From: an uncultured delta proteobacterium
GTDB lineage: Bacteria; Desulfobacterota; Binatia; DP-6
Reading direction: 5' to 3'
DNA length: 64,000 nucleotides
NCBI GenBank assembly: GCA_963815115.1
Contig: CAWFFN010000009.1
Span: 128,001-192,000 of the forward strand
How positions within the stretch are numbered: position 1 is the stretch's first letter; the number at the start of each line of letters is the position of its first letter. The notes below the pieces were generated by a model. It made no database searches. It was not told the origin of the DNA and worked only from the letters and a program-made list of their open reading frames with translations. Both the position numbers and the translations under genes were made by a program. Shown here piece by piece: positions 43,868 through 60,762 of the stretch.

Positions 43868-45058
43868 CTAGTGCGGCGACTCGGCGGCGTTCGCTGCCAG
43901 CACCGGCTCGGGTCCCTCGACCGGAACCATGCGGCCGTCCGCCAGCACCCGCAGGCGCTGCCCGCTCCAGTCGACGTCGCGTCCGAGCCAGGAGGCGCAC
44001 CAGACGCCCGAGTAGGCGAGATCCTTCAGCGGCACCAGCCAGAGATGGCGGACCGTGTCCGTGTCGCGGAGCATGCCGGCGATCGCCCGCAGACCGAGCA
44101 GCCGGCAGAGAAGCGCCGTCGCGAGCGCGAGCCAGCCGATCGCAGCGCCTCCGGTCGCGAGCACCGCGAGCACTCCCCACAGCGTCGTCTGGATGATGAT
44201 GGTGGCGAACCAGCCGACGGGCTGACAGACACGGTAGGTGCGCGCCCAGCGCAGGTGGTGGCGCCAGACGTCCCGCATGGTCTGCGAGTCGGGCACCGTT
44301 TCCACCACGTAGGGCAGCAGGCGCAGCCCCCAGCCGGCCTCCGCGACGCGGCGCCCGAGCACGTAGTCGTCGGCGAGGTGGGCGCGCATCTCCTCGAAGC
44401 CGCCGATGGCGTCGAGCGCCTCGCGCCTGAACGCGATGGACGCGCCGTAGGCATACCTGAAGCGCTGCACCCACTGCGCCATCAGCACCATGGGGAGGAA
44501 GTCGGTGTTGATGAGGAGCGATTCGACGATGGCGGGAATGCCGCCCGCGGCGCGGCCCCGGTAGAGGCAGGTGGTGAGGCCGACCGCCGGGTCGGCGAGG
44601 GGGGCGACCAGCCGGTGCAGGTAGTCGGCTCGCACCCGGATGTCGGCGTCGCTCAGCACGAGCACGTCGTGCTTGGCGTGGCGCATCATGTGGACCAGGT
44701 TGGCGACCTTGCGGTTGGCGCCCTCCTCGTGGCCGATCGCGAGCGCGATGTCGATGTGCGGGAAGCGCCGCACGAGTCCGCGCACCACCTCGACGGCCGG
44801 GTCACGCGCGTCCTCGACCCCGAAGACGATCTGGTACGCGGGGTAGCCCTGGCGGCAGAAGCTCTCGAGGTTGGCGTCGAGCTCGATTCCGGGACCCTTG
44901 AGCGGCTTCAGCACCGTCACCGGCGGACACGGGGCGGCCGAGCTTCGCGCGCCAGGCCGCGACCGCCGGAGGAAGCGCCACGCGGCCACCAGCTGGACCA
45001 GCTGATAGACGCTCGCCACGCCCGAGCAGGCGAGGACGACGAGGATCAGGGGATGCAT
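43868..45058 (-). CDS. hpnI: Bacteriohopanetetrol glucosamine biosynthesis glycosyltransferase HpnI
   Basis: VTVLKPLKG, GANRKVANL, LSDADI, LADDY and LRWART; adjacent to hpnJ. Confidence 0.82.
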   Translation of the reverse strand: MHPLILVVLACSGVASVYQLVQLVAAWRFLRRSRPGARSSAAPCPPVTVLKPLKGPGIELDANLESFCRQGYPAYQIVFGVEDARDPAVEVVRGLVRRFPHIDIALAIGHEEGANRKVANLVHMMRHAKHDVLVLSDADIRVRADYLHRLVAPLADPAVGLTTCLYRGRAAGGIPAIVESLLINTDFLPMVLMAQWVQRFRYAYGASIAFRREALDAIGGFEEMRAHLADDYVLGRRVAEAGWGLRLLPYVVETVPDSQTMRDVWRHHLRWARTYRVCQPVGWFATIIIQTTLWGVLAVLATGGAAIGWLALATALLCRLLGLRAIAGMLRDTDTVRHLWLVPLKDLAYSGVWCASWLGRDVDWSGQRLRVLADGRMVPVEGPEPVLAANAAESPH

Positions 45059-45060: not shown

Positions 45061-46506
45061 TCACGCCCGAGCCGCCTCCCCGCTCCGTGCCATCTGGCGG
45101 CGCTTCCACATCGCACCGAGGAACTGCCGTCCCTCGGACAGGAGCCGCTTCCGCTCCTCGCGGTCGCGCGCCATCTTCTTGAGCGACTTCCAGATGTAGC
45201 GCCGGCTGAAGTAGTAGCGCCGGTAGAACGTCTCCACCGCGCGGAAGATCTCGTCCGCCGAGACCTCGGGGTAGCTCACGGTGCACTTCTGGTAGCCCAT
45301 GTCGTCGACCAGGCTGTCGACCGTGAGGTAGCCGTTGTCGCGCACCCAGTCGTACATCGCCGTGCCGGGATAGGGCGACGCGAGAGACACCTGGAGGGTC
45401 TCGGGCCGCATCTCCTGCGCGAAGCGAATCGTCTCCTCGATGCTCTCGTGCGTCTCCCCGGGCAGGCCGAGGATGAACGTGCCGTGGATCAGCACGCCGA
45501 CGTCGTGGCAGTCGCGCGTGAAGCGGCGAGCCCGGTCGACGCTCACGCCCTTCTTGATGTTGCGCAGGATCTGCTCGTTGCCCGACTCGTAGCCGACCAC
45601 GAACAGCCGCAGCCCGTTGTCCTTCAGGACGCCCAACGTGTCGCGATCGACGTTCGCACGCGAGTTGGTGGACCACGTGAGCCCCAGCTTGCCGAGCCCG
45701 CGCGCGATCTCCACGGCGCGCTTGGGATCGGCCGTGAAGGTGTCGTCGTCGAAGAAGAGCTCCTTCATCTCGGGGAAGAGCCGCTTCACCCGGGAGCACT
45801 CCTCGAGGACGTTGTCGACGTTGCGCGTGCGATAGCTGTGACCGGTGGTCACCTGCGGCCAGAGACAGAAGGTGCAGCGCGCGGGGCAGCCGCGGCCCGT
45901 GTAGAGCGAGACGTAGGGATACTGGCAGTAGGGGCTGTTGTACTTCTTGTAGTCGAGATCGCGGGCGTAGACGTCGGTGGCGAACGGCAGCGAGTCGAGG
46001 TGCTCGGTCGCGAGCGGCGGCGCCTCGTCGTTGTGCACGTAGATGCCGTCGCGGAGGAAGCTCACGCCGTGGACGTCCGCGAGCGGGCGCCCCTCGGCGA
46101 CCGCCACCACGGCCAGGTCGAACTCCTTGCGCGCGACGTAGTCGATGACGCCGGCGTGACGCAGGGACTCCTCGGGTCGCGCCGTCACGTGTCCGCCGAC
46201 GAAGCCGATCATGGTGTCCGGCTTGGCGGACTTGAGCACCTCGGCGGTGCGCACGTCGGCACGGAACGACGGCGTGCTGGTGTGGATGACGACGTGATCG
46301 TAGTCACGTGCCACCTGCACCACGTCCTCGACCGTCAGGTGCTCGGGCGGAGCGTCGAGCAGCCGGGCGCCGGGCAGCATGCCCGCGGGGTAGGCCAGCC
46401 AGGTCGGGTACCAGAAGGACCAGACCTCGCGCTTCGCCTGGTAGCGCGAGCCGGCTCCTCCGTCGAAGTCGTCATACGAAGGCGGATTCAGCAGCAGCGT
46501 GCGCAT
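45061..46506 (-). CDS. hpnJ: Hopanoid biosynthesis-associated radical SAM protein HpnJ
   Basis: FDGGAGSRYQAKREVWSFWYPTWLA signature; CPARCTFC SAM motif. Confidence 0.9.
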   Translation of the reverse strand: MRTLLLNPPSYDDFDGGAGSRYQAKREVWSFWYPTWLAYPAGMLPGARLLDAPPEHLTVEDVVQVARDYDHVVIHTSTPSFRADVRTAEVLKSAKPDTMIGFVGGHVTARPEESLRHAGVIDYVARKEFDLAVVAVAEGRPLADVHGVSFLRDGIYVHNDEAPPLATEHLDSLPFATDVYARDLDYKKYNSPYCQYPYVSLYTGRGCPARCTFCLWPQVTTGHSYRTRNVDNVLEECSRVKRLFPEMKELFFDDDTFTADPKRAVEIARGLGKLGLTWSTNSRANVDRDTLGVLKDNGLRLFVVGYESGNEQILRNIKKGVSVDRARRFTRDCHDVGVLIHGTFILGLPGETHESIEETIRFAQEMRPETLQVSLASPYPGTAMYDWVRDNGYLTVDSLVDDMGYQKCTVSYPEVSADEIFRAVETFYRRYYFSRRYIWKSLKKMARDREERKRLLSEGRQFLGAMWKRRQMARSGEAARA

Positions 46507-46723
46507 CCCCTTTTTTCCTCTCCTCACTGACCCGATTGAGGCACGCGGTGCGGGCACTTCCGGGCACCTTGCCCGGGCTATCGATCATCCTGACCGAACG
46601 GTAAGCGACGTGCTTAGCGAACCCGACACGGAGGCGCAAGGGAGACGTCACGGTGACGTTGTCTCGCTGACTCAAACGTTGGCTTGCACCGGCGCCTCGG
46701 CCGTCGCATAACCGGCTCGTCGC

Positions 46724-48364
46724 ATGCGAGCGGGTCTGTTGGGGCTTTTCGGGCGGCCGGAGGTCGTGCTCGCGGCGGGAGCCCACGACGCGCTGTCGGC
46801 CAAGCTCGCCGAGGAAGCCGGCTTCGACGCTGTCTGGGCGAGCGGATTCGGCATCTCCGCCGTCCAGGCGCTCCCCGATGCCAACATCTTGACCCTCACG
46901 GAGACGCTGGAGGCGGTCCGGCGCATCTGCGACGCGGTGTCGGTGCCGGTCATCGCGGACTGCGACAACGGGTACGGCAACGCCATCAACGTGATGCGCA
47001 CGGCGAGCGAGTTCGAGCGCGCCGGCGCGGCCGGCATCTGCATCGAGGACAACGAGTTCCCCAAGCGCTGCAGCTTCTACGCCGGCGTGCGCCGCGACCT
47101 CGTGCCGGCCGAGGAGCACGCGCGCAAGGTCGAGGCCGCCTGCTCGGCCCGACACCGGCCGGACTTCGCCGTCATCGCCCGCACCGAAGCCCTGATCGCC
47201 GGCCTCGGTCTCGAGGAGGCGCTGCGCCGCGCGCGCGCCTATGCGGAGGCCGGCGCCGACGCCGTCCTCGTGCACTCGAAGGAGGCCGACTTCGGCGAGC
47301 TCCGCCGCTTCGGCGAGCTGTGGACGCTCGGCGTCCCGCTCGTGGCCGTGCCGACCACCTATCCGGGCGTCGGAACCGACGAGCTCGCGGCGGCGGGCTT
47401 TCGCATGGCCATCTTCGCCAACCAGGCGCTGCGGGCCGCGATCGTCGCCATGCGCGACGTGTTGCGCACGCTGCGCGCGACGGGTCGGGCGGCCAGCATC
47501 GACGACCGCATCGTGCCGCTGGACGAGGTCTACCGCCTGGTGGGCGTGCCGGAGCTCAAGGCGAACGAGCAGCGGTTCCTGTTTGCCGGCGCAGAGGCCC
47601 CGCGCGCCATCATCCTCGCCGCCGGGTTCGAGCCCCAGCTTCTCCCGCTCACCCAGGACCGCCCGAAGACGATGCTCGACGTGAAGGGGAAGACGATCCT
47701 GGAGCGGCAGGTCGAGGCGCTCGGGCGGGTCGGCATCCGCGACGTGGTGGTGGTGCGCGGCTACAAGAAGGAGCAGGTCGCGGCGCCCGGGGTACGCTTC
47801 GTCGACAACGATCGCTACGCCGAGACCGGAGAGCTGCACTCCCTGCTGAGCGCGGGGAGCGACCTGGAAGGCCCCTGCGTCGTCCTCTACGGCGACATCA
47901 TCTTCGAGCCTCCGGTGCTGGAGAAGCTGGTACGCACGCGGGCCGACCTTGCCGTCGTGGTCGACCGGGCGTTCGTCGACACCCTGCATGCGGGCCTCCC
48001 GCTTCCGCCGGGGCCGCTCGACCTGGTGGTCACCGAGACGCCGCCCAACGGCCGCCGCTTCGTGGCGCCCGAGGGCGGCAGCCGCGTGCTGCGCATCGGA
48101 CCCGAGGTCACCCCCGAGGAGGCGCACGGCGAGTTCATCGGGCTCGCCATGCTGTCGGCCGCGGGCGTGCGGCTGCTGCGCGAGGTCCACGCCGAGCTCG
48201 CGTCGAGCCGCGCCGAAGGTCTGGATCGGAGCAGCATCACCCACATCCTGCAGGCGCTCATCGATCGCGGCCACCCGGTCGTGGCGGTCGACATTCACAA
48301 GGGATGGATGGAGATCGACAGCTTCGAGGACTACCGGCGGGCATGGGCCGAGGTGACGCGCTGA
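46724..48364 (+). CDS. Phosphoenolpyruvate mutase-like enzyme fused to a nucleotidyltransferase domain
   Basis: GAHDALSAKL, WASGFGISA, DCDNGYG, EDNEFPKRCS, ARTEALIAG and IFANQ; C-domain IILAAG...PKTML...YGDI...WMEID. Confidence 0.82.
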   Translation: MRAGLLGLFGRPEVVLAAGAHDALSAKLAEEAGFDAVWASGFGISAVQALPDANILTLTETLEAVRRICDAVSVPVIADCDNGYGNAINVMRTASEFERAGAAGICIEDNEFPKRCSFYAGVRRDLVPAEEHARKVEAACSARHRPDFAVIARTEALIAGLGLEEALRRARAYAEAGADAVLVHSKEADFGELRRFGELWTLGVPLVAVPTTYPGVGTDELAAAGFRMAIFANQALRAAIVAMRDVLRTLRATGRAASIDDRIVPLDEVYRLVGVPELKANEQRFLFAGAEAPRAIILAAGFEPQLLPLTQDRPKTMLDVKGKTILERQVEALGRVGIRDVVVVRGYKKEQVAAPGVRFVDNDRYAETGELHSLLSAGSDLEGPCVVLYGDIIFEPPVLEKLVRTRADLAVVVDRAFVDTLHAGLPLPPGPLDLVVTETPPNGRRFVAPEGGSRVLRIGPEVTPEEAHGEFIGLAMLSAAGVRLLREVHAELASSRAEGLDRSSITHILQALIDRGHPVVAVDIHKGWMEIDSFEDYRRAWAEVTR

Positions 48365-48864
48365 GCGCGCCGCTGCCCGCGGTCCCCTTCGTCGATCGTC
48401 TCTTTGCCGCCGGCTTCGACTTCTTCACCGGTGTGCCCTGCTCCCTCGTCGCGCCCGTGATCGCCGAGCTCGAACGGCGCGGGAGCTACCTGGGCGACAC
48501 GCGCGAGGACGCGGCGCTCGGCGTCGCCGCCGGCGCGTACCTCGCCGGCCGGCTTCCCGTGGTGATCATGCAGAACTCGGGTCTCGGGGTGTCGCTCAAC
48601 GCACTCGGGTCGCTGCATCTGCTCTACGAGCTCCCGGTGCTGCTGCTCGTCACCTGGCGGGGCTTCGAGGGCCGGGACGCTCCCGAGCACCTGGTCATGG
48701 GCGGGGTGCTGACCGGCGTGCTCGATCTCTTCGAGATCCCCCATCGCGCTCCGGATGCGTCCACGCTGCTCGCCGACGTCGACTGGGCGGCGGCCACGCT
48801 CCGGGCGACCCGCAAGCCCGCGGCGCTCATCGTGAAGCCGGGGCTCTTCGCCGAGCACCACTGA
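48343..48864 (+). CDS. Phosphonopyruvate/sulfopyruvate decarboxylase, alpha (N-terminal TPP) subunit
   Basis: FFTGVPCSL, REDAALG, MQNSGLG and WRG...APEH; start uncertain. Confidence 0.85.
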   Translation: MGRGDALSAPLPAVPFVDRLFAAGFDFFTGVPCSLVAPVIAELERRGSYLGDTREDAALGVAAGAYLAGRLPVVIMQNSGLGVSLNALGSLHLLYELPVLLLVTWRGFEGRDAPEHLVMGGVLTGVLDLFEIPHRAPDASTLLADVDWAAATLRATRKPAALIVKPGLFAEHH

Positions 48865-48865: not shown

Positions 48866-49432
48866 ATGACGCTGCGCGACGCTCTCGACCGCATCGCCCC
48901 CCGCCTGCGCGGTGAGGTCTGCGTGCACGCGAACGGACATCTCTCACGCGCGGCGTTCGGCGTGCGCGACGCCGACACCAGCTTCTACATGATCGGGTCG
49001 ATGGGGCTCGCCTCGTCGATCGGGCTCGGCATCGCGCTCTGCCGGCCGGACCGCCGCGTGATCGTCTTCGACGGCGACGGGAACGTCCTCATGAACCTCG
49101 GCACCCTGGCGACGATTGCCGTCGCGGCGCCACGGAACCTCCTCCATCTCTGCTTCGACAACTCCGCGCACGCCTCGACCGGAGGCCAGCCGACCATCTC
49201 GAATCGGGTCGCGCTGGACGCGCTGGCGCGCGCCGCCGGCTATCGCTGGACGGGCCGCGTGGAGTCGCCCGAAGCGCTCGAGGCGGTGCTGCCCGAGTTC
49301 CTTGGCCGATCCGGACCGGCTTTCCTCCTGGTACGCATCGTCCTCGGTCCGCCGGGAGCGCCGGGTCCGCGCATTCCCTGGACGCCAGTGGAGATGACGG
49401 CCCGGCTGCGTCGCGCGCTCGGGTCCGCGTGA
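48866..49432 (+). CDS. Phosphonopyruvate/sulfopyruvate decarboxylase, beta (TPP-binding) subunit
   Basis: FYMIGSMG, DGDGNVLM and DNSAHASTGGQPT. Confidence 0.87.
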   Translation: MTLRDALDRIAPRLRGEVCVHANGHLSRAAFGVRDADTSFYMIGSMGLASSIGLGIALCRPDRRVIVFDGDGNVLMNLGTLATIAVAAPRNLLHLCFDNSAHASTGGQPTISNRVALDALARAAGYRWTGRVESPEALEAVLPEFLGRSGPAFLLVRIVLGPPGAPGPRIPWTPVEMTARLRRALGSA

Positions 49433-49441: not shown

Positions 49442-50743
49442 GTGGTCGAGGCGCTGCGGTCGAACGAACGGACGCGACCACTCGACCTCGAGGCGTGCCT
49501 GCGAGCGACCGCCGCGGGTGCCCTCGCCGGTCTGGTGGGCGGGAGCTATCGTTCCATTCTCGACGGCGTCGATCCGTGGCGACAGGACCTGATCGCTCGA
49601 CTCGGCGGCACGGTCTTCGGATGGCTGGCGCTGGCCGCCGTCTTCGCGCTCGGCGCGGGACTGGCCGCCTGGCTCACGGTGCGCTTCGTGCCCGAGGCCG
49701 CAGGCAGCGGCATCCCACACGTCGAGGAGACGCTGGTGCGGGGTGGACGGCTGCGCTGGAAGCGGCTGCTCCCGATCAAGTTCGTCGCCGGCGCCCTGGC
49801 GCTCGGAGCCGGACTGTCGCTCGGACGCGAAGGCCCCACCGTCCACCTCGGCGCGGCACTGGCCTCGGCGCTGGAGGGCCGGCTCGGAACGACTGCCCGT
49901 CGCGCGCTGCTGGCCGCGGGGGCTGCCGCGGGTTTGACGGCTGCCTTCAGCGCGCCGATCGCCGGTGCGGTCTTCGTGCTCGAGGAGCTTCGCGTCGCCC
50001 CGAACCTGCTCATGATTTCGACCGGTCTGCCGGCGGTGCTCGCGTCGTACCTCGTGACCACGGCGATGCTCGGGTCGCAGCCGATGTTCGCCCTCCCGCC
50101 GGTAGGGGCCCCGTCCCCCTGGGTGCTGCCGCTGTTCGCTGCGCTCGGGATCGGCGCCGGCATCCTGGGCGTGGTCTTCAATCGCGGCCTGCTCGGCGCC
50201 CTGGCGGCGTTCGGGTCGATGCGCCGCGTGCCACGGCCGCTCCGTGCCGCCGCCGTCGGCGTCTTGGCGGCGCTCGTCGCCTGCTGGGTGCCGGCCGCGA
50301 TCGGCAGCGGTGAGCCGACCGCCCAGATCTTGATCCAGGGTCCTCCTTCGCCGCTGGCGAGCCTCGTGCTCCTGCTCGCGGTCAAGCTCGTCCTCACCCT
50401 GGCGAGCTACGGCTGCGGCGTGCCGGGCGGCATCTTCGCCCCGCAGCTCGTTCTCGGAGCGACGCTCGGCGCCATCGTGCATGCGCTGGCCCCCGGCCTG
50501 GGCGGCGGCGCGCTCGGTCCCGTGCTCGCGACGGCCGGAATGGTCGGCGTCTTCAGCGCCTCGGTGCGCGCGCCCCTCACCGGGCTCGTGCTCGTGGTCG
50601 AGCTGACGCACCGGGGCCAGCTGCTGCTGCCGCAGGCGATCACGGCGATCGTCGCCTATCTCCTCGCGGCCGGCCTGCGCGACCGCCCGATCTACGAAGC
50701 GCTGCGCGAGCGGGACGCCGGGCGCGCGAGCGCGGCCATTTGA
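49442..50743 (+). CDS. ClC family H+/Cl- exchange transporter
   Basis: GSGIP, GREGP, FVLEE, GIFAP and PIY signatures. Confidence 0.92.
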   Translation: MVEALRSNERTRPLDLEACLRATAAGALAGLVGGSYRSILDGVDPWRQDLIARLGGTVFGWLALAAVFALGAGLAAWLTVRFVPEAAGSGIPHVEETLVRGGRLRWKRLLPIKFVAGALALGAGLSLGREGPTVHLGAALASALEGRLGTTARRALLAAGAAAGLTAAFSAPIAGAVFVLEELRVAPNLLMISTGLPAVLASYLVTTAMLGSQPMFALPPVGAPSPWVLPLFAALGIGAGILGVVFNRGLLGALAAFGSMRRVPRPLRAAAVGVLAALVACWVPAAIGSGEPTAQILIQGPPSPLASLVLLLAVKLVLTLASYGCGVPGGIFAPQLVLGATLGAIVHALAPGLGGGALGPVLATAGMVGVFSASVRAPLTGLVLVVELTHRGQLLLPQAITAIVAYLLAAGLRDRPIYEALRERDAGRASAAI

Positions 50744-50788
50744 CGGCACCAGCCGGATCGGAGACAAGGCTGCGCCGGAGGACCCGCC

Positions 50789-51349
50789 GTGAAGCCCGAC
50801 GAGTGCATCCTCTTCAGCGGCGCCGCCCAAGGCGCCGAGGCCGCCTTCGGCGAGTGCGCAGAGCGCTATGGAATCGAGGAGGTGAACTTCACCTTCGAGG
50901 CGCACAGCGACGCTCGCACGCGTGGCATCCGCGTGCTCACCAGCGCGGAGCTCAAGCACGGCGACGTCAGCCTCGCCTACGTGAGCCGCCTGATGAACCG
51001 GCGCTATCCCGACACGCCGCTCTTCCGGAAAGTGCTGCAGAGCATCTGGCACCAGGTGAACAACGGTCAGGACATCTTCCTGGTCGGGAAGATCCAGCCC
51101 GACGGTACGGTCGTGGGTGGCACCGGCGTGAGCGCGGAGTACGCCAAGTTCTTCAACAAGCGCCTCCACGTCTTCGACCAGGATCGCGACGCCTGGTCAC
51201 GCTGGAGCGGCGACGTCTGGGAATCCGCCGCAGAGCCCGTGATCACGCACCCGTTCTTCACCGGCACGGGGACGCGGTTCCTGCGCGACAACGGGCGTGG
51301 CGCGATCGACGGCCTCTTCGCGCGCACGTTCGGCGCGCCGAAGCGCTAG
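50789..51349 (+). CDS. Hypothetical protein, possible SLOG-superfamily Rossmann fold
   Basis: LFSGAAQGAE, GGTG and FTGTGTR; GGAGG RBS. Confidence 0.65.
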   Translation: MKPDECILFSGAAQGAEAAFGECAERYGIEEVNFTFEAHSDARTRGIRVLTSAELKHGDVSLAYVSRLMNRRYPDTPLFRKVLQSIWHQVNNGQDIFLVGKIQPDGTVVGGTGVSAEYAKFFNKRLHVFDQDRDAWSRWSGDVWESAAEPVITHPFFTGTGTRFLRDNGRGAIDGLFARTFGAPKR

Positions 51350-51645
51350 ACGCCCCGGGGCGTCGTGCACCACGCTGCGCCGGACCGGCCGACGTAGCCC
51401 CCAGACCCGGACCTCCACCTCTCTTCGCCTTCCGACAGGGCGGCGTCACAGCCTCCGACGCGCATCGGGCCGCGCCGCACGGGGTGCCGGACGACCCGGA
51501 CCCGCGGTGCTCGCGGGGGCGAACTAGGCTGCGAACGCGTTCATCCTGGACGAAGGGGTTGACACGGAGGGTCGAAGGATGGGCGCAAACCCGGCGACGA
51601 GGTACACGGTTCGAGGGCATGACGGGGCTCCGCGGTTCATCCGGG

Positions 51646-52863
51646 ATGAAAACTGCAGTCGAGATGCGTCCCGCCCGCGTCGGGCCGGCCGCCGATCAGT
51701 CCGGTCGAGGTGCTCTCCCCGCGGGTCAGCGGCCCGGACGCAGATACTTCCCGGAGCTCGAGTCGCTGCGCGGGATGGCCGTGTCGCAGGTCTTCGCCAT
51801 GCACGCGGTCGGATGGGTATTCGGGGGTCTGGCCGGCACGAGCGCGCTGTTCCCGGCACTCGTGAAGAGCGATCGGCTCGGGGTCGACCTCTTCTTCGTG
51901 CTGAGTGCGTTCCTCCTCTCCCTGCCCTTCCTGGAAGACGCCGCCGGCGGCCCTCGCGTCCGCGTGCGAGGGTACTTCGGACGCCGCGCGTTGCGGATAC
52001 TACCCGCCTACTATGTCGCGACGGTCATCGGCACCGTCCTGTTGGCGAAGCAGCCCCGCGATCTGCTCCGAGGGCTTCCCTACCTGGTCTTTTTGAACCC
52101 GTTCGCCACCCCGCTCCGGCCGTACAGCGACGTGTGGTGGAGTCTCGCGACCGAGGTCCAGTTCTACGCCGTGCTCCCGCTCCTTGCTGTGCTCGGCCGC
52201 TCGACCGCCGGGCGCCGGCTCGGGGTCGCGGCCCTGCTCGTCTGGATGGCCAGCTATCTCGCCTTCCTGAGCGGTGTGCTCGTCCCTCGCAGCGCCGCAG
52301 GCCTCTTGACCTTCGAAGCATCCCTCTTCGGCCGCGCGCCGCTCTTCCTTGCCGGCATCGCCGCCGCAGCAGTGTACCGGGCGCACGGCGCGAGCATCCG
52401 CGAGCGGCTCGAGCGCGCTCGTTTCATGCGCAAGGGCGGGAGCGACCTCCTTCTCGTGCTGGTGATCCTGGGAATCGCAGCCTTCTCCCGCTGGCAGGAG
52501 ACGCTCGGCCCCGCACTTCTTCTGTCGCCCCGCTACCAGTACCGCGACCTCGTGACCGCGGCCCTGGTCGTCGCGCTGCTCTTGCTTCTCGTGCTCGCGC
52601 CGCTGCGGTCGAAGGCGCTGTTCGTCAACCCGATCTTCGGGGGACTCGGTATCATCTCGTATTCCGTCTACCTGATACACCTCCCACTCATGATCTTCCT
52701 GATCGGCTATCGCCCCTTCGCGAGCATCATCAGGAACGTTCCGGATGTTCGCCTCCAGCCGTTCGTGGTGTTCATCGCGATCGCCACCGCGTGCGTCGCC
52801 GTCTCGACCCTGACCTATTGGGTCATCGAGCGGCCCTTTCTGCTGCGGAAGAGCAGGCTCTGA
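51646..52863 (+). CDS. Acyltransferase family 3 (OafA-like membrane O-acyltransferase)
   Basis: LESLRG, GVDLFFVLS, RRALRILPAY, WSLATEVQFY, SYSVYLIH and IERPF; start uncertain (51619-51664). Confidence 0.88.
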   Translation: MKTAVEMRPARVGPAADQSGRGALPAGQRPGRRYFPELESLRGMAVSQVFAMHAVGWVFGGLAGTSALFPALVKSDRLGVDLFFVLSAFLLSLPFLEDAAGGPRVRVRGYFGRRALRILPAYYVATVIGTVLLAKQPRDLLRGLPYLVFLNPFATPLRPYSDVWWSLATEVQFYAVLPLLAVLGRSTAGRRLGVAALLVWMASYLAFLSGVLVPRSAAGLLTFEASLFGRAPLFLAGIAAAAVYRAHGASIRERLERARFMRKGGSDLLLVLVILGIAAFSRWQETLGPALLLSPRYQYRDLVTAALVVALLLLLVLAPLRSKALFVNPIFGGLGIISYSVYLIHLPLMIFLIGYRPFASIIRNVPDVRLQPFVVFIAIATACVAVSTLTYWVIERPFLLRKSRL

Positions 52864-52990
52864 CCCCGCCGCCCGGGATGGTCTGAGGGTCCATCCGGAT
52901 CATCACCACGACAGCATGCGGCTCACTCGCGGTGATTTCGCGAACGGACCGCCGTGCTACAAGACGAACGGGAGAACGGTCCAGGCCACC

Positions 52991-53530
52991 ATGAGCGTTC
53001 AGCCGTACAGGATCGACATACCGGAATCCGTTCTCGATGACTTGCAGGGCAGGCTCGCGAGAGTTCGCCTCGCAAAGGGGATTGACGGCGGCGGCTGGGA
53101 CTACGGAACGAGCCCGTCATACCTCCGGGAGCTGTGCGACTATTGGCAACGGGACTTCGACTGGAGGAAACAGGAACGCTTCCTGAACAGCTTCCGCCAC
53201 TTCCGCGCTGACGTCGATGGTGTTGGACTTCATTTCATCCACGAGAAAGGCAAGGGTGAGCATCCCATCCCCTCTTGCTGGTGCATGGTTGGCCCGACTC
53301 CTTCGCGCGTTTTCTGAAGGTCATCCCCATGCTGACGGACCCGGTGGCGCAATGCGGACTTGCAGCCGTCATTCGACGTCGTCGTGCCGAGCCTACCGGG
53401 CTTCGGCTTTTCGGATCGACCGCACGAGGCCGGTCTGACCTTCAGCTTCGGTGATCTCCTCCACGGACTCATGGTCGACCTGGGCTATCAGCGCTTTGCC
53501 GTCCAGGGTGGCGACTGGGGCGGCACGGTG
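52991..53530 (+). pseudogene. Truncated, frameshifted epoxide hydrolase (EHN + alpha/beta hydrolase N-half)
   Basis: PYRIDIP..LDDLQGRL, YWQRDFDWRKQE, HGWP, VVPSLPGFGFS and QGGDWG, after which homology ends. Confidence 0.8.
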
Positions 53531-53669
53531 TGGCGGACATTTCGCGGCCCTGGAGGAACCCGGGCTCTTCGTCGAGGAGCTTCGTGCGACGTTTCGCCCG
53601 CTGTGGTCGGAGGCCGGCGAGCAAGCCTAGCGCGAGAGGGTGACGGCGGTCCCACCGGCACCCACGCCC

Positions 53670-54341
53670 TCAGCCGGCTTCGCCAGTCGGGTGGACAGGG
53701 TACGGCCAGGCAGTCGCTGGGGGCGCCAGCCCGGGTGCAAGCTCCGGCGCGGGTTCGGGCGCGCCGGGTGCGAGCCGCAGCGGCATCACTCCCGCCCAGA
53801 CCGGCCACGTCATGTCCTCCTCGTCGTCGATCGGCCCGCCGGTCCGTACCTTCGCGACCGCCTCACGGAGCGGCAGCTCCAGCACCAGCGTCGCCTTGAG
53901 CTCCTGCTCGTTCGGCGACCGCACGCTGGCCCATCGCCCCGGATACAGGCGCTCGGTGAAGGCCTCGAGTGCCGTGAGCTTGCGGTCCCGCTCCGTGATC
54001 TCGGTCGCGCGGCCAAACAGCACCACCGAGCGGTAGTTGATCGAATGGTGGAACGCTGACCGCGCCAGCACCAGGCCGTCGATCAGCGCGACGCTGATGC
54101 AGAGTTCGGCGCCGCCCGTCGCTGCCAGGAGGGTGCGGCTCTTGCTCGAGCCGTGGAACACGACGGCATCGCCCACACGCGCATAGGCGGTGGGAATGAC
54201 GATGGGCCGGCCGCTCTCGACGAAGCCCACGTGGCAGACGAGCCCGGCGTCGAGGATGGCGTGGACGGTCTCGGCATCGTACGAGGCGCGCGCCGGCAGG
54301 CGGCGAACTCGCGTGCGGTCGGTCTGGGCGAAGGCGCTCAT
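53670..54341 (-). CDS. Pyridoxamine 5'-phosphate oxidase-like flavin-binding protein (NimA-like)
   Basis: ILDAGLVCHVGF, HGS, DGLVLARSAFHHSINYRS and KVRTGGP. Confidence 0.9.
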   Translation of the reverse strand: MSAFAQTDRTRVRRLPARASYDAETVHAILDAGLVCHVGFVESGRPIVIPTAYARVGDAVVFHGSSKSRTLLAATGGAELCISVALIDGLVLARSAFHHSINYRSVVLFGRATEITERDRKLTALEAFTERLYPGRWASVRSPNEQELKATLVLELPLREAVAKVRTGGPIDDEEDMTWPVWAGVMPLRLAPGAPEPAPELAPGLAPPATAWPYPVHPTGEAG

Positions 54342-54361
54342 GCATGCGAGAGTCACACATC

Positions 54362-54408
54362 ATTGGACCCATGAACAGGGCCATTATTGAACAATTCATG
54401 GAGCCAAT
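54362..54408. promoter_or_regulatory. Imperfect inverted repeat in the divergent promoter, probable MocR-family operator
   Basis: ATTGGACCCATGAA-N19-TTCATGGAGCCAAT (12/14 match), AT-rich. Confidence 0.6.
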
Positions 54409-54510
54409 TTCTGAGCCGGAACGCGCCGGGACACCCCCGGATGCGCAGCGAGAGGGGCACAGCTCCTCGCGACATTGCATCGCGCGGGCCTTGCGCCCTA
54501 AGCAGCGGGC

Positions 54511-56013
54511 ATGCCTCGCCCGAGCGCAGTTCTCGGCACGCTCTCCCTCGAGCGCACCGGCGCCGTCGCGCTCCAGCGCCAGCTCTACGGTGCGCTGCGC
54601 GAGGCGATCCTCACGGGCCGCCTCCCGCCGGGCACCCGCCTGCCCTCGAGCCGCACCCTCGCCGGCGATCTGGGCGCTGCCCGCAACACCGTCGTCGGAG
54701 CCTTCGAGCAACTCGCGGCCGAGGGCTACGTCGAGGCGCGGGTCGGCGACGGTACCCGGGTGGCGGCGGTGTTGCCGGAGACCCTCCTGCACGCCGGCCG
54801 GGCGCACGTCCCGCAGGCCGCCCGCCCGAGCGCCCCGGACCTGTCGCGGCGCGGGCGGGCGATCGTCGCTGCGCGCCGCCCGCTGCCGGACGCGAGCCGG
54901 CGCGCATTCCAGCCGGGACTTCCCGCGCTCGAGGAGTTCCCGAGCGAAACGTGGGCGCGCCTGGTCGCCCGTCGCTCCCGGGCACCGGTCCGGGGCAGCC
55001 TGGGCTACGGTCATCCCGCAGGCCTGCCCCTGCTGCGGCAGGCGATCGCCGCCTACGCCGGCGGCGCACGCGGCGTGATCTGCGATGCGGAGCAGGTGAT
55101 CGTCGTCGCGGGCGCCCAGGCGGGGCTCGATCTCGCGTGCCGCCTCCTCCTCGACGCCGGCGACGCCGCGTGGATGGAGGAGCCCGGCTACCTCGGCGCG
55201 CGCGGGGCGCTCCTGGGAGCGGGAGCGCAACCGGTCCCCGTCGCGGTCGACGCCGAGGGCATCGACGTGGAGGCGGGACGGCGCGCGGGCCGCCCGGCAC
55301 GTCTCGTCTACGTGACACCGTCCCATCAGTTCCCGCTCGGCGTGACCATGACCCTCGCCCGCCGGCTCGCACTGCTGGCCTGGGCGGCGGAGGCGGGCGC
55401 GTGGGTTCTCGAGGACGACTACGACAGCGAGTATCGCTACGCCGGCCGGCCGATCGCCGCCATGCAGGGACTCGATCCCGCCGGACGCGTCGTGTACGCG
55501 GGCACGTTCAGCAAGACCATGTTCCCGGCGCTGCGTGCGGGCTACCTGATCGTTCCGCCTGCGCTGGTCGACGCCTTCGGCGCGGCGGTGCGCGTGACCG
55601 GCCACCAGGTGCCGGCAGCGGAGCAGGCGGCGCTCGCCGACTTCATCACCGAGGGGCATTTCGCGTCCCACGTGCGGCGCATGCGCGCTCTGTACGCTGC
55701 ACGGCGCGAGCACCTGGTGGCAGCGTTGCAGCGGAGGTTGCCGGCGCTCCTCGAGGTCGTCCCCTCGGAGGGCGGCATGCAGCTGGCGGCGACCCTGGCG
55801 CCCGGCGTGGACGACGTGGCCGCCTCGCGGGCGGCGGATGCGGCCGGCATCGTCGCGCCCCCGCTCTCGATGTATCACCTCGGCCCACGTCGGCTCCGCG
55901 GGCTGCATCTGGGCTATGCGAGCGTGCGCGAGCGCGAGGTCACTTCGGCGGTGGAGCGCCTCGCGCGCGCGCTCGAGTCGGTCGCCCCGAGGCGCAGCCG
56001 GCGCGTTCCGTGA
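54511..56013 (+). CDS. GntR/MocR (PdxR-like) regulator with PLP aminotransferase domain
   Basis: RLPSSRTLA HTH; EEPGY, VTPSHQFPLG, EDDYDSE and TFSK. Confidence 0.93.
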   Translation: MPRPSAVLGTLSLERTGAVALQRQLYGALREAILTGRLPPGTRLPSSRTLAGDLGAARNTVVGAFEQLAAEGYVEARVGDGTRVAAVLPETLLHAGRAHVPQAARPSAPDLSRRGRAIVAARRPLPDASRRAFQPGLPALEEFPSETWARLVARRSRAPVRGSLGYGHPAGLPLLRQAIAAYAGGARGVICDAEQVIVVAGAQAGLDLACRLLLDAGDAAWMEEPGYLGARGALLGAGAQPVPVAVDAEGIDVEAGRRAGRPARLVYVTPSHQFPLGVTMTLARRLALLAWAAEAGAWVLEDDYDSEYRYAGRPIAAMQGLDPAGRVVYAGTFSKTMFPALRAGYLIVPPALVDAFGAAVRVTGHQVPAAEQAALADFITEGHFASHVRRMRALYAARREHLVAALQRRLPALLEVVPSEGGMQLAATLAPGVDDVAASRAADAAGIVAPPLSMYHLGPRRLRGLHLGYASVREREVTSAVERLARALESVAPRRSRRVP

Positions 56014-56181
56014 GCAGGGCAAGCCGATACGCCGTGCCCGTTGCCGCGCCGAGCCTGGTGGCTCCGGCAGTTCCCGGACGCGGGGATCGGCTGGCCACCC
56101 TGCCCGTTCCTCACGGGCGCCACCGGTGATGAGCGGTGGCGTGCCGTCGCGGCGGGTGCTACCCCCGCGATGCTTGATCGC

Positions 56182-57240
56182 ATGATCCTGCTCAATCCGG
56201 GTCCCGTGAACGTCTCGCCGCGCGTCACCGCCGCGCTCGGTCGCGGCGATCTGTGCCACCGCGAGCCGGAGTGCGCCGCGCTCCTGGAGCGCATCCGCGG
56301 CCGGCTCCTCGAAGCGTTTGCGCCGCGCGCCGGCTTCACGGCCGTGCTGATCACCGGCTCGGGAACTGCCGCCGTCGAGGCCGCGGTGACCAGCGTGTGC
56401 TCGGAGCGGGGCCGCCTGGCGGTCGTGTGCAACGGCATCTACGGCGAGCGCATCGTGGCCATGGCGGCGGCGGCGCGCATTCCGGTGACGCGATTGGAGG
56501 GTGCCTGGACCGCTCCGCCGGATCTGGCCGCGGTCGAGGCGGCGCTCCGCGCGCCGGACGTCGAGGCGGTCGCGGTCGTGCACCACGAGACCACGACCGG
56601 TCTGATCAACCCGGTCGCGGAGATCGCGCGGCGGGCGCGTGCGCTCGGCAAGCTCGTGCTGGTCGACGCGGTCAGCGGACTCGGCGGCGAGCCGCTCGAC
56701 GTCGCCGGGATCGACCTGGTCGTGGGCACCGGCGGCAAGTGCATCCAGGCGTTTCCCGGCATGGGATTCGTGCTGGTGCGGCGGGACGTGCTGGACCGGC
56801 TCGCCGCCTACCCACGCCGTTCGGTCTACCTGTCGCTGGCCACCTACACCGCGAGCGCCATGCCGTTCACTCCGGCGGTGCAGGTCGCGTACGCGCTCGA
56901 CGAGGCGCTCGCCGAGCTGCTCGAGGAGACCGTCGCGGGCCGCATCGCGCGCTACGCCGGCGCGGCGGCGCTCCTGCGCGACGGGTTCGGGCGCCTCGGG
57001 CTCGAGCTCGTCCTCCCGCCCGATCTGCGCTCCAACACCATCACGTCGCTCCGCTTTCCGCCGGGTCGGAGCTACCCCGAGCTGCACGACGCGCTCAAGG
57101 CGCGCGGGTACGTGATCTACGAGGGACAGGGATGGTTCGCGAAGGAGGCGTTCCGGGTGGCGAACATGGGGGTGCTCGGGCGCGCGGACCTCGAGGGCTT
57201 CCTGGTCGCGCTCGGCGACGCGCTCGGAGCCGCCCGATGA
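56182..57240 (+). CDS. 2-aminoethylphosphonate aminotransferase (class V, AepZ/PhnW-like)
   Basis: LLNPGP, GSGTAAVEA, NGIYGERI, HHETTTG, DAVS, KCIQ and PFTPAV. Confidence 0.85.
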   Translation: MILLNPGPVNVSPRVTAALGRGDLCHREPECAALLERIRGRLLEAFAPRAGFTAVLITGSGTAAVEAAVTSVCSERGRLAVVCNGIYGERIVAMAAAARIPVTRLEGAWTAPPDLAAVEAALRAPDVEAVAVVHHETTTGLINPVAEIARRARALGKLVLVDAVSGLGGEPLDVAGIDLVVGTGGKCIQAFPGMGFVLVRRDVLDRLAAYPRRSVYLSLATYTASAMPFTPAVQVAYALDEALAELLEETVAGRIARYAGAAALLRDGFGRLGLELVLPPDLRSNTITSLRFPPGRSYPELHDALKARGYVIYEGQGWFAKEAFRVANMGVLGRADLEGFLVALGDALGAAR

Positions 57241-57971
57241 CCGCGATCGTCCTCGCCGCCGGGGTCGGAAAGCGCCTGCTGAACGCCTCCGGTGGCCGCC
57301 CCAAGTGCCTCATCGAGATCGGCGGCAAGAGCCTGCTGCGCCGGCTGCTGGAGAGCCTCGCGGCCGCCGGGGTGCGCGAGGCGGTGGTGGTGGCGGGCTT
57401 CGGGGACGCGGAGGTGCGCGCCGCGCTCGCCCCTCCGGTCGACGGCATCGCCGTCCGCTGCCTCACCAACCCGCGTTTCCGGGAAGGCGCGATCCTCTCC
57501 CTGTGGACGGCGCGCGACGCCCTCGACGGCGGCGTGCTGATCATGGACGCCGACGTGCTCTGCCCGAGCGCGATGCTGGCGCGGCTCGTGACGTCGCAGC
57601 ACGCGAACTGCTTCCTGCTCGATGCGAGCCAGGAGAACACCGGCGAGGAGCAGATGCTGCTGGTGCAGGACGGCCGCGTCCGCAACATCGTACGCGGCGG
57701 CGCCCCGGGGTACGACCTGATGGGCGAATCGATCGGCTTCCTGAAGCTCGGCGCGGACGCCGCCCGATGTCTGCGCGAGCTGCTGGCCGCTCGGGTGGAG
57801 ACCGGGGACACGAGCATCGAGCACGAGGAGGTGTATCCGGCGCTCCTGGAACGCGTCGACGTCGGATTCGAGCGGGTGGACGGCATGCCGTGGATCGAGA
57901 TCGACTTCCCGGAGGACGTGGCGAGAGCGGAGCGGGAGGTCCTCCCCCGGATCGAGGGACACGCGCGGTGA
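57237..57971 (+). CDS. Phosphonate/phosphocholine cytidylyltransferase (PntC/LicC-like)
   Basis: IVLAAGVGKRL, PKCL, MDADV, GESIG and WIEIDFPED. Confidence 0.85.
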   Translation: MTAIVLAAGVGKRLLNASGGRPKCLIEIGGKSLLRRLLESLAAAGVREAVVVAGFGDAEVRAALAPPVDGIAVRCLTNPRFREGAILSLWTARDALDGGVLIMDADVLCPSAMLARLVTSQHANCFLLDASQENTGEEQMLLVQDGRVRNIVRGGAPGYDLMGESIGFLKLGADAARCLRELLAARVETGDTSIEHEEVYPALLERVDVGFERVDGMPWIEIDFPEDVARAEREVLPRIEGHAR

Positions 57972-58672
57972 CGGAAGGCGGGGGCGCTGCCGTCCCCGTC
58001 GGCAATCCGCGCGACGGCTACTTCGACCGGCTGGTGTCCCGCCGGCTGTCGCCCGCCGTGACGCGCCTGCTGCTCCCGACCGCCCTCACCCCGAACGCGG
58101 TCACCATCGCGAGCACTGCCATCGGGGTCGTGGGCGGTCTGCTGGTGGGCAGCGAGGGGAGCGCCGGCATCGTCGCGGGGATCCTGTGCCTCCTCGTCTC
58201 GGGGGTCCTCGACTGCTGCGACGGCGAGCTGGCGCGGCTCCGCGGGACCAGCTCCCGTATGGGGCACGCACTCGACGTCCTCGGGGACACGCTGGTGGCC
58301 GTCGCGTTGCTCGCGGGCATCGCGCTGCATCTGGCGCGTGCCGGCAGCTTCCCCGGCTGGCCGGCGCTCGTCGCGCTCCTCCTCGGCGTCGCCGGCGCCT
58401 TCGCCGTCATCACGTGGAGCGAGGCAAGGGCAGCGCGCCGGCGCCAGGTCGCGTGCTGGGAGAACGGCGTCCTCGACGGCGTCCTCGGTCCGCTGACGAC
58501 GCGCGACTGGTACGTGTTTCCCGTCGCCTTCGCGCTGGCGGGCCGGCTCGGCTGGCTGGTCCCGGCGGCTGCGGTGGGCGCCCACGTCTTCTGGCTGGTG
58601 ACGCTGGTGCTCCTGCTGCGCGTGCTCCGAGCCGCTCAGCTCCACGGAAGCGCGGCTCGCGTCCGCCAGTAG
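57968..58672 (+). CDS. CDP-alcohol phosphatidyltransferase family protein
   Basis: TPNAVT and DCCDGELAR...G..LDVLGD signature. Confidence 0.88.
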   Translation: MTEGGGAAVPVGNPRDGYFDRLVSRRLSPAVTRLLLPTALTPNAVTIASTAIGVVGGLLVGSEGSAGIVAGILCLLVSGVLDCCDGELARLRGTSSRMGHALDVLGDTLVAVALLAGIALHLARAGSFPGWPALVALLLGVAGAFAVITWSEARAARRRQVACWENGVLDGVLGPLTTRDWYVFPVAFALAGRLGWLVPAAAVGAHVFWLVTLVLLLRVLRAAQLHGSAARVRQ

Positions 58673-59652: not shown

Positions 59653-60762
59653 TCAGGCGCTCTTCAATCCCTGGAGGTCCGCCGTCCGTCGCGCCAGGTA
59701 GAGCAAGCCGATGCCGTCGAAGAAGACCTCGCGCGCCCGCTTGAGGAGCCACAGCGTCAGGGCTTCTGCCTCGGGCATGCCGAGGAACGTGCACAGCCAG
59801 ACGCCGCCCAGCTCCTGGGTGCCGATGCTGCCCGGGATGACGAGCGCGGTCGCGCGGATCGGCTGGGAGAGCGTCTCGATGACGAAGGCGTCGAGCCAGG
59901 ACACGCTTCCGCCCGTCAGCACGACGATGACCACCACCTCGGCGACGCCGATCAGCCAGCCGACGAAGTGGCACGTGGCGGCGAGCAGGAAGGCGCGCGG
60001 CTCCCAGCGATAGAACTCGCGCAGCCGGACGTCGAAGGCGGCGGCCCCGGACTCCAGGCGGGCGACGAACCCCGCGCGGGGCGCGAACCGGCGGAGCGTT
60101 CGCCAGAGGGCGGTCGCCGGGCTGCGTCGCTGCACCCAGACCAGGCCTCCGGTGAAGGCAAGGCAGATCACGATCAGCGCGACGAGCCAGCCCATGGCCA
60201 TCTGCGGGCGCCCGAGACGCAGGAGGAGCGCGGCGATGCCGAGCGCCGTGAACAGACTCTGCGACGCGACCAGCGCGGTCTTCGAGATCACCACGGAGGC
60301 GAAGGCTTCGGCGCCGCTCACCTGCCAGCGGCGCAGGAGGTACGCCTTGATCGGCTCGCCGCCGACGGCGGCCGCGGGCGTGAGGCTGTTCACCGCCTCG
60401 CCGGCCATGCGGCTCAGCGTGAGCGAGGAGAACGGCACCCTCCCCCGCGCCGCCACGGACAGCGTGTAGCGCCAGCCGAACGCATCGGCCAGGGTCACCA
60501 GGGCGTAGGGAACGAGGATGAGCGGTGCGGCCCAGCCGAGCGCGCGTACCCGGTGCCAGACGGGCTCGAGCCCGGCGTGGTGCAGGAGCCAGCCAAGGAC
60601 GGCGAGCCCGGCGGCGGCGGCGAGCACGGTGGTCACGCGGCGACGAATCGGGCTGGCGGTGACGGCGTCCTGCGCGCCGGCGCGAGCCGGGGCCGGCAGG
60701 GCGCGCTTGCGCGACCGCTCAGCGCCCACGTCGGCCGCCAGGATGGTTTCGGGCGATGTCAC
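59653..60762 (-). CDS. Lysylphosphatidylglycerol synthase TM / flippase-like protein (HpnL-like)
   Basis: GEAVNSLTP...GGEPIK and IPGSIGTQE; polytopic membrane protein. Confidence 0.8.
   Translation of the reverse strand: MTSPETILAADVGAERSRKRALPAPARAGAQDAVTASPIRRRVTTVLAAAAGLAVLGWLLHHAGLEPVWHRVRALGWAAPLILVPYALVTLADAFGWRYTLSVAARGRVPFSSLTLSRMAGEAVNSLTPAAAVGGEPIKAYLLRRWQVSGAEAFASVVISKTALVASQSLFTALGIAALLLRLGRPQMAMGWLVALIVICLAFTGGLVWVQRRSPATALWRTLRRFAPRAGFVARLESGAAAFDVRLREFYRWEPRAFLLAATCHFVGWLIGVAEVVVIVVLTGGSVSWLDAFVIETLSQPIRATALVIPGSIGTQELGGVWLCTFLGMPEAEALTLWLLKRAREVFFDGIGLLYLARRTADLQGLKSA

Follow-up and report, generated by a model that had tools for sequence, protein, structure and literature searches.

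A phosphoenolpyruvate-mutase-like enzyme with a variant gating loop in a putative phosphonolipid gene cluster of an uncultured delta proteobacterium

Phosphoenolpyruvate (PEP) mutases (PepM or Ppm) are commonly recognized in sequence surveys by the gating-loop motif EDKX5NS. The motif is required to call PepM by Rice et al. (2019, PMC6697681), by Li and Horsman (2022, PMC8942020), in an actinomycete mining study of December 2025 (PMC12723261) and by Acker et al. (2022, PMC8931226), who also apply the trusted cut-offs of TIGR02320; its standing as a genome-mining filter, assumed in an initial annotation of the DNA described here, is stated in all four. Fusion to a PF12804 nucleotidyltransferase domain has been reported for a third of Ppm enzymes, and in the 2019 RefSeq inventory of Rice et al. 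22 fused sequences without the motif were dropped as “presumed non-Ppm” (PMC6697681). Yu et al. and Li and Horsman have described phosphonolipid clusters, named Group 1 or “Burkholderiales_CDP-OH”, in which a Ppm-PntC fusion is accompanied by a second PntC, AEPT and lipid genes (PMC8942020). The subject of this work is a gene for a fused PEP-mutase-like enzyme, P0001, with a different loop, found in a 64,000-nucleotide stretch (the window) of the genome of an uncultured delta proteobacterium (GTDB lineage Bacteria; Desulfobacterota; Binatia; DP-6; assembly GCA_963815115.1, contig CAWFFN010000009.1, positions 128,001 to 192,000 of the forward strand).

What is new in this locus is a PEP-mutase-like enzyme that occupies the slot of a PEP mutase, fails the motif test of the family and lies outside its core clade. 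With a probability of roughly 0.7, the N-terminal domain of P0001 is an active Mg2+-dependent PEP mutase that would convert PEP to phosphonopyruvate and represents a deep, widespread lineage, denoted below as CS type for the Cys-Ser pair found where canonical enzymes have Asn-Ser. All catalytic steps proposed here are inferred from sequence, family membership, conservation, phylogeny and synteny.

The variant loop and its distribution

The loop lies at 47045–47080 on the plus strand of the window. The bases, read directly, are GAGGACAACGAGTTCCCCAAGCGCTGCAGCTTCTAC (codons GAG GAC AAC GAG TTC CCC AAG CGC TGC AGC TTC TAC for E D N E F P K R C S F Y), with the translation EDNEFPKRCSFY, and they bear out the EDNEFPKRCS of the initial annotation. 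The loop is in frame with an open reading frame (ORF) that runs from the ATG at 46724 to the TGA at 48362–48364 and encodes 546 amino acids without internal stops. Aligned to the EDK..NS loops of solved PepM structures, it comprises residues 108–119, equivalent to 114–125 of Mytilus PepM; over residues 17–286 the query numbering plus 6 gives the Mytilus numbering (used below unless stated otherwise), hence Lys116 is replaced by Asn and Asn122 by Cys. This numbering is confirmed by the review PMC7916636, where the Mytilus loop is given as 121-TNSLHDGRAQPLAD-134. The PEP-mutase-like domain occupies 46724–47593 (plus strand, residues 1–290; PF13714, TIGR02320, 5UNC), and the LicC/PntC-like nucleotidyltransferase domain, together with the stop codon, 47594–48364 (plus strand, residues 291–546; PF12804, 1JYK, 6PD1). 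In Pfam, PF13714 (PEP_mutase) matches residues 13–249 with 191.4 bits (E 2.4e-56), which places the protein in the superfamily, and PF12804 (NTP_transf_3) matches residues 295–413. The DNA of the window is about 70% G+C with a strong third-position bias, by which genes were picked among its many overlapping ORFs.

A word-indexed protein search gave 3599 matches among 7999 scored candidates. Almost all of the 120 homologues listed, at 77–97% identity, are about 546 amino acids long and carry both domains, and 118 of them have the motif EDN[ED]FP[KE]RCS (94 EDNEFPKRCS, 23 EDNDFPKRCS and one EDNEFPERCS); in the other two, P0087 and P0120, no motif was matched by the pattern. A scan of one genome per species found 159 relatives, the best 80 of which, when kept, yielded 76 loci (numbered L001 onwards). 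The motif ED[N/S/A]xFPK[R/K/Q]CS[F/L]Y is present in all 76, at identities down to 48%, with some bias introduced by one of the six locus-fetch patterns, as it included the motif (ICIEDNEF); it was absent from the remaining five. These loci cover at least eight phyla. The hosts nearest to the window are metagenome-assembled genomes (MAGs) labelled Binatia or “delta proteobacterium” (75–87% identity), and the others include Planctomycetota, ten named Sorangium genomes and other Polyangiales (Myxococcota), Acidobacteriota, Omnitrophota, Chlamydiota, Auribacterota, a Rokubacteria-like MAG and, among Actinomycetota, Actinomadura chibensis and one Streptomyces. In Sorangium cellulosum So ce56 (L061) the orthologue lies at about 10,190,963–10,192,585 of NC_010162.1. 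Because 118 of the 120 listed homologues and all 76 loci share it, the variant loop is real and conserved over deep divergence; it is neither a one-off nor a sequencing error, the latter a possibility raised in the initial annotation.

Relationship to PEP mutases, hydrolases and lyases

The loop of the query, IEDNEFPKRCSF, aligns column by column with IEDKRFPKVNSF of 5UNC, a solved Streptomyces PEP mutase, and equally with LEDKLFPKTNSL of Mytilus PepM and MEDKTFPKDTSL of phosphonopyruvate hydrolase. Among solved structures, the best relative of the N-terminal domain is the same Streptomyces enzyme, with a full-length alignment (E 1.6e-80), followed by phosphonopyruvate hydrolase (2DUA/2HJP, E 3.1e-68) and Mytilus PEP mutase (1M1B/1PYM, E 6.4e-61); lyases of the superfamily are much weaker (E 2e-39 or worse). 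The top NCBIfam family is TIGR02320 (PEP_mutase) at 263.1 bits, short of its cut-off of 319.55. The next scores, those of the hydrolase TIGR02321 (251.8, cut-off 374.4) and prpB TIGR02317 (195.5, cut-off 354.4), do not reach their cut-offs either; carboxyPEP mutase scores 158.0, and isocitrate lyase (ICL) models at most 42 bits. TIGR02320 is also the best NCBIfam match for all nine CS-type representatives tested, and prpB, below cut-off, for four lyase-like representatives. The TIGR02320 cut-off was dropped as a discriminator, as it is missed by six of the eight canonical-motif representatives tested and passed by only two. The EDKX5NS filter is failed at two positions (K to N and N to C), and a look-up in the ESM Atlas returned only generic “ICL/PEP mutase family” clusters.

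An exhaustive search of representative sequences retrieved 10,741 proteins at E≤0.001, 1276 of them at E≤1e-30. The best 150 representatives at 50% identity, a sample biased towards the query, comprise 83 with EDK..NS loops, 28 of CS type, 23 with ED[not K]..NS, 10 with other loops (including hydrolase-like ..TS), four lyase-like ones with EDQ..PKRC[G/A] and two without a motif. Fragments in which fewer than 250 residues aligned (15 in all) were removed, and a quick maximum-likelihood tree was built from the other 134 representatives and the query (135 rows). It was rooted on the four lyase-like rows, so that the rooting depends on four sequences that match prpB best, though below its cut-off. 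All 81 remaining EDK..NS rows fall into a single clade of 89 rows (SH-aLRT support 98) that contains no CS rows. A more careful tree of 72 rows, with every non-canonical row and 18 of the 81 canonical ones, recovers the canonical clade at 99/94 support, with the hydrolase-like (PalA-like) rows nested inside it. Both trees place the CS rows, the query among them, outside the canonical clade, in a basal part with weak resolution next to the lyase-like outgroup, and on bootstrap trees these rows require at least three to five label changes, which is compatible with one origin or with several. The comparison with PepM, PalA and lyases proposed in the initial annotation thus sets the query apart from the clade that holds both canonical PepM and PalA-like rows and near the lyase-like root.

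Eighteen CS rows (17 representatives and the protein of the window) were compared column by column with the 81 canonical representatives. Exactly four columns, all in the gating loop, show no overlap between the two sets: position 116 (N in 17 CS rows and S in one; K in all 81 canonical rows), position 122 (C in 18; N in 81), position 125 (Y in 18; aliphatic residues such as I, L and V in canonical rows) and position 130 (R in 17 and D in one; Q in 64, H in 13 and N in three). The lyase-like rows have Q, C, Y/F and R/K at these positions, the same class of states as the CS type, and the ED[not K]..NS rows fall between the two sets (N, N, Y/L and R/H). Arg at 121 is commoner in the CS type (16/18) than in canonical rows (16/81), and the change from K116/Q130 to N116/R130 looks like a relocated positive charge. 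Among the Mg2+ ligands and the catalytic set, with residue roles after the review PMC7916636, D58, D85, E114, D115, K120, S123 and R159 are kept in all 18 CS rows, N239 and R243 in 17 each, and S46, D87 and H190 in 16 each; the query has D58, D85, D87, E114, K120, S123, R159 and H190, with Cys in place of Asn at 122. S46, S123, H190, N239 and R243 are common to the CS type and the 81 canonical rows and lacking in the four lyase-like rows. The description of the enzyme as a hybrid therefore stands, lyase-like at 116, 122, 125 and 130 and PepM-like at S123, H190 and other positions, as does the statement that Thr replaces this Asn in phosphonopyruvate hydrolase, which is seen both in the alignment (EDKTFPKDTSL) and in PMC7916636. 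Within the lineage fused to the nucleotidyltransferase, position 122 is occupied by C, in P0147 by N and in P0145 by H, without loss of the fusion, and this interchange argues for a polar contact at 122 rather than an obligatory nucleophile.

A separate class, ED[N/Q/H/S/A]..NS (23 of the 150 nearest representatives), keeps Asn122 and lacks Lys116, so it fails EDKX5NS too. Its members include P0135 and P0153, fused to AMP-binding adenylation domains, and P0217, a 2-hydroxyacid dehydrogenase fusion.

The closest solved relative of the C-terminal domain of P0001 is the LicC CTP:phosphocholine cytidylyltransferase (1JYK, E 5.8e-15), and the domain also matches the 2-aminoethylphosphonate (AEP) cytidylyltransferase Tde1415 (PntC; 6PD1). 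Its segment at 47600–47680 (plus strand, residues 296–315), AAGFEPQLLPLTQDRPK, compares with the family consensus GXG(T/S)RX4-8PK; the consensus Arg is replaced by Gln, and the terminal PK is retained. Replacement of the conserved Arg by Ala in Tde-PntC led to a loss of more than 90% of the activity (PMC6697681). Other CS-type fusions read AAGF[ED]x here and canonical fusions often AAS[RK]G; a second NTP_transf_3 gene is usual in CS-type clusters.

Gene context in the window and in related loci

Immediately 3' of the mutase-like gene, the window encodes an enzyme expected to consume phosphonopyruvate, a phosphonopyruvate decarboxylase (Ppd) split in two. Subunit alpha, with a thiamine pyrophosphate (TPP) N-terminal domain (PF02776), lies at 48343–48864 (plus strand); its start is uncertain (48343 or 48361), and an ATG at 48343 overlaps the end of the mutase-like gene. 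Subunit beta, with the TPP C-terminal domain (PF02775), lies at 48866–49432 (plus strand). Alpha scores 119.8 bits with TIGR03297 (Ppyr-DeCO2ase) and 109.2 with TIGR03845 (sulfopyruvate decarboxylase alpha), beta 164.4 with TIGR03297 and 160.2 with TIGR03846, all below cut-offs; the pair scores nearly equally for both families and is split like the sulfopyruvate decarboxylase ComDE. Further downstream are an AepZ/PhnW-like class-V aminotransferase (56014–57240, plus strand; PF00266; TIGR03301 PhnW-AepZ 307.1, below the cut-off of 360.8) and a 455-residue protein (57305–58672, plus strand) with a CDP-alcohol phosphatidyltransferase domain (PF01066) at residues 262–374, a candidate phosphonyl-to-lipid transferase. 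The first 250 or so residues of the latter match no Pfam family; homologues of the same length elsewhere are NTP_transf_3 + CDP-OH_P_transf fusions. All components of a phosphonolipid cluster are thus found in the window (the fusion, PpdA/B, the AepZ-like protein and CDP-OH_P_transf), with all enzyme-specific NCBIfam scores below their cut-offs. The claim that the gene directly precedes decarboxylase subunits, with AEP genes nearby, is borne out by the two adjoining Ppd halves and by the AepZ-like and CDP-alcohol phosphotransferase genes downstream, and by its sequence matches the context is that of phosphonate or phosphonolipid biosynthesis.

To characterize the 76 loci, hidden Markov models built from the window proteins and trimmed to the seed were run against six-frame ORFs (E≤1e-6, at least 60% model coverage). 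A Ppd half was found in 58 loci (A in 56, B in 54), a CDP-OH transferase in 48, an AepZ-like protein in 34, a flippase-like protein in 23, HpnJ in 15 and HpnI in 13; these counts are not independent because ten of the loci are named Sorangium genomes. The PpdA start lies at most 400 bp downstream of the mutase gene on the same strand in 42 of the 76. Where both flanks extend to 5 kb or more (48 loci), Ppd occurs in 41 and at least one of Ppd, AepZ-like and CDP-OH genes in 45, a result that fails to refute the initial annotation, as homologues with this motif but no ppd/aepZ association would have done. Split Ppd accompanies the CS-type mutase across phyla. The same gene kit was recovered by Pfam for 106 ORFs of ten diverse loci and for 25 more ORFs; it includes a second type of NTP_transf_3 gene, in many cases as a fusion with a CDP-OH_P_transf or transaminase domain. 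In three relatives of the window (L005, L007 and L009) the transaminase directly follows ppdB. A PhyH-type dioxygenase is encoded directly upstream in L028, and in L020 an Fe-alcohol dehydrogenase and a protein with helix-turn-helix (HTH) and cupin domains stand in place of the transaminase, together with a further nucleotidyltransferase and a phosphodiesterase, which suggests that this cluster (L020:9665-17848) belongs to a hydroxyethylphosphonate branch. The stop-to-stop ORF of L020 with the CS-type fusion has an N-terminal HTH_3 domain, possibly a separate in-frame upstream gene. Neither the 64-kb window nor the fetched stretch of any of the 76 loci contains a second ORF of the PEP-mutase family.

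Two actinomycete homologues stand alone. That of Streptomyces sp. SID3343 (L046:9887-17833), IEDNEFPKKCSFY, has no Ppd; two ATP-grasp ligases, a methylaspartate-mutase E-chain homologue and an MFS transporter are encoded downstream and transposase fragments upstream, and the locus may be a small-molecule (peptide) cluster. That of Actinomadura chibensis (L067:8059-16320), with the loop EDSAFPKRCS, is surrounded by genes for an SDR, a SpoU methylase, MFS transporters and FAD monooxygenases, with no phosphonate gene within 10 kb; therefore, not every CS-type protein need be a mutase.

On the other side of the mutase-like gene in the window, across a 166-bp spacer, a divergent HpnJ-type B12-binding radical SAM gene (45061–46557, minus strand; TIGR03471 707.2, above the cut-off of 577.6) is followed by an HpnI-type family-21 glycosyltransferase gene (43868–45058, minus strand; TIGR03472 379.1, above the cut-off of 310), with no other hopanoid gene seen beside them in the window. 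HpnI and HpnJ are enzymes of the glucosamine and cyclitol-ether head groups of bacteriohopanetetrol. Such genes lie divergently beside the phosphonate operon in L001, L002, L004–L011, L013, L014, L019 and L021, and the spacer is 49–255 bp in most Binatia-like loci. All loci with HpnJ are Binatia-like except L040, where the match is 7.2 kb downstream on the same strand. From this neighbourhood a phosphonate-decorated hopanoid or related lipid is a possibility.

Between ppdB and the transaminase, an interval of about 6.5 kb (49442–56013) holds genes on the same strand for a ClC channel, a small conserved ORF (186–201 amino acids, no family match) and a MocR-type regulator, as well as an N-terminal fragment of an epoxide hydrolase (52916–53317) and a Pyridox_ox_2 gene; G+C falls to 0.66 at 52001–54000. 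After the CDP-OH protein, the opposite strand encodes an aldo-keto reductase, an HpnL-like/LPG_synthase_TM flippase-like membrane protein (59653–60783, minus strand; PF03706; TIGR03476 179.1, below the cut-off of 195.65), a GFO-type oxidoreductase, a GT2 glycosyltransferase and a DegT aminotransferase.

Competing readings and comparison with known systems

In the proposed pathway, the Mg2+ ligands and the residues that hold the substrate and the phosphoryl group would act as in canonical PepM. The loop would close over the site, with the Cys (116 in query numbering) replacing Asn122 as the polar residue facing the migrating phosphoryl, and the charge of the lost Lys116 would be supplied by Arg at 130 (R124 of the query), often also by Arg at 121 (R115 of the query). 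The adjacent two-subunit TPP decarboxylase would pull the unfavourable mutase equilibrium towards phosphonoacetaldehyde, from which the AepZ-like transaminase would form AEP. The fused LicC-like domain and/or a second nucleotidyltransferase-like protein would produce CMP-AEP, the membrane protein of the CDP-alcohol phosphotransferase family would load the phosphonate onto a lipid alcohol, and the flippase-like protein may carry the product across the membrane.

Several observations weigh against this assignment. The query fails both the EDKX5NS motif and the TIGR02320 cut-off (263.1 vs 319.55), and its fused nucleotidyltransferase is without the GXG(T/S)R signature. Seven of the 48 loci with full flanks have no Ppd within 10 kb, and L017, L046 and L067 (the last two being the stand-alone actinomycete copies) have no phosphonate gene at all. 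The search for a second pepM covers the fetched stretches and the window, not whole genomes. The Cys of K[KR]CGH lyases is catalytic, and the CS-type Cys aligns with it (aligned representatives EDQ..PKRCG). Finally, Asn122 helps to hold the phosphoryl group, and a single change to Thr at this position is held to make a mutase a hydrolase (PMC7916636), so that Cys at 122 could alter the outcome of the reaction.

One alternative is a different chemistry on the same scaffold. The substrate would be phosphonopyruvate or another 2-oxo acid, on which the domain would work as a hydrolase, a lyase or a decarboxylase, and the lyase-type Cys would serve together with Arg115, Tyr119 and Arg124 (query numbering) as general acid/base. 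All four discriminating loop positions are lyase-like in the CS type, the lineage branches outside the canonical PepM clade and near the lyase-like root, L067 and L046 stand without a nearby Ppd, and the hydrolase activity of PalA has been linked to one residue change at 122 (PMC7916636). Such an enzyme would, however, leave Ppd, the AepZ-like protein, the nucleotidyltransferase and the CDP-OH transferase without a source of phosphonopyruvate, with no second family member nearby in any of the 76 loci; it would retain the PepM-specific S46, S123, H190, N239 and R243, which are absent from the four lyase-like rows; and there would be no use in joining a hydrolase to an activating transferase with a decarboxylase encoded next to it. 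This reading is considered unlikely, and of the two possibilities put forward in the initial annotation, an enzyme with different chemistry and a class of C–P bond-forming mutases missed by the filter, conservation and context favour the latter.

It is very unlikely that the domain is a dead mutase-like scaffold or regulator for the fused nucleotidyltransferase, with phosphonopyruvate supplied by a canonical PepM encoded elsewhere. The replacement of two supposedly defining motif residues would fit such a loss, and the scan for a second pepM was restricted to the loci and the window. Dead domains, however, usually lose residues such as D58, D85, E114, D115, K120, S123 and R159, which are invariant in 18 of 18 rows; moreover, the variant loop is kept down to 48% identity, and a decarboxylase gene abuts the mutase gene in 42 of the 76 loci. 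A sequencing or assembly error or a pseudogene is refuted by the intact ORF of the typical 546 amino acids and by the loop in 118 of the 120 listed homologues and in 76 of 76 loci.

A sulfonate, taurine or β-alanine-type pathway was also considered, as the decarboxylase halves score nearly equally for sulfopyruvate decarboxylase. Against it stand the LicC-type cytidylyltransferase and the CDP-alcohol transferase, both of which would need a phosphate or phosphonate substrate, and it was not adopted.

A bolder combination of claims goes beyond the assignment of the domain as an active PEP mutase, and as a whole it is unlikely. According to it, EDKX5NS would be a derived feature of one PepM clade, and the CS type would comprise older, mechanistically distinct mutases in which the ancestral lyase Cys still serves, either in acid/base catalysis or by carrying the migrating phosphoryl transiently as S-phosphocysteine; in the Binatia-like group, hopanoid-type lipids made with the divergently encoded HpnI and HpnJ would receive a phosphonate head group from these enzymes.

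Since the published inventories require EDKX5NS, CS-type enzymes are excluded from them, and the 22 fused sequences discarded in 2019 may include the CS lineage. To judge from the conservation of the loop across many phyla and from the gene neighbourhoods, an entire lineage of phosphonate producers probably escapes this filter. With regard to a possible undercount, only 22 fused sequences were dropped for want of the motif in the 2019 inventory (PMC6697681), and the 150 nearest representatives, a sample biased towards the query, contain 28 of CS type and 23 with ED[not K]..NS. If the CS type is active, surveys ranging from actinomycete mining to ocean metagenomes overlook a range of groups, mostly of soil and groundwater, that make phosphonates and probably phosphonolipids, among them Binatia-like bacteria, Planctomycetota, Myxococcota (Sorangium and others), Acidobacteriota and Omnitrophota; Lys116 and Asn122 would not be required for C–P bond formation, and the CS type would offer a natural lyase–mutase intermediate for studying the origin of the activity. 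A full-text literature search, with subscription journals outside its coverage, found no description of this loop or of any non-EDK PepM, no Sorangium phosphonates and no link between HpnI/HpnJ and phosphonates, and the available part of the supplements of PMC8942020 and PMC6697681 contains no entries for Sorangium, Actinomadura, Binatia or Chloracidobacterium.

Among the known systems, canonical PepM/Ppm (EC 5.4.2.9; 1PYM/1M1B, 5UNC) shares with the query the domain, the best-matching family, the metal ligands, R159, H190, K120 and S123, as well as the slot before Ppd and the fusion to a PF12804 nucleotidyltransferase. The query differs in Asn at 116, Cys at 122, Tyr at 125 and Arg at 130, in its position outside the clade supported at 99/94 and in its failure of EDKX5NS. 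PalA (TIGR02321; 2HJP/2DUA) is likewise similar (E 3.1e-68) and is a PepM relative altered at 122; however, it combines EDK with Thr122 inside the canonical clade, whereas the query combines EDN with Cys122 outside it, scores 251.8 against the cut-off of 374.4 and stands in a biosynthetic context (decarboxylase, nucleotidyltransferase), not a catabolic one. With the PrpB-type lyases (TIGR02317) the query shares the K-R-C sequence, a non-Lys residue after ED, Tyr125 and Arg130, as in the four lyase-like rows, but its Cys is followed by Ser-Phe rather than by the Gly-His of lyases, it keeps the PepM-type S46, S123, H190, N239 and R243, and it lacks a propionate or glyoxylate context. The CS-type loci match in layout the Group 1 phosphonolipid clusters (PMC8942020), with which they have in common the Ppm-PntC fusion, an extra nucleotidyltransferase, AEP transaminase, Ppd and a CDP-alcohol-type transferase. 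Group 1 clusters are built on canonical Ppm-PntC, whereas in CS-type loci the enzyme has the CS loop, Ppd is split in two, the hosts belong mostly to uncultured soil and groundwater lineages and, in the Binatia-like group, HpnI and HpnJ adjoin the cluster.

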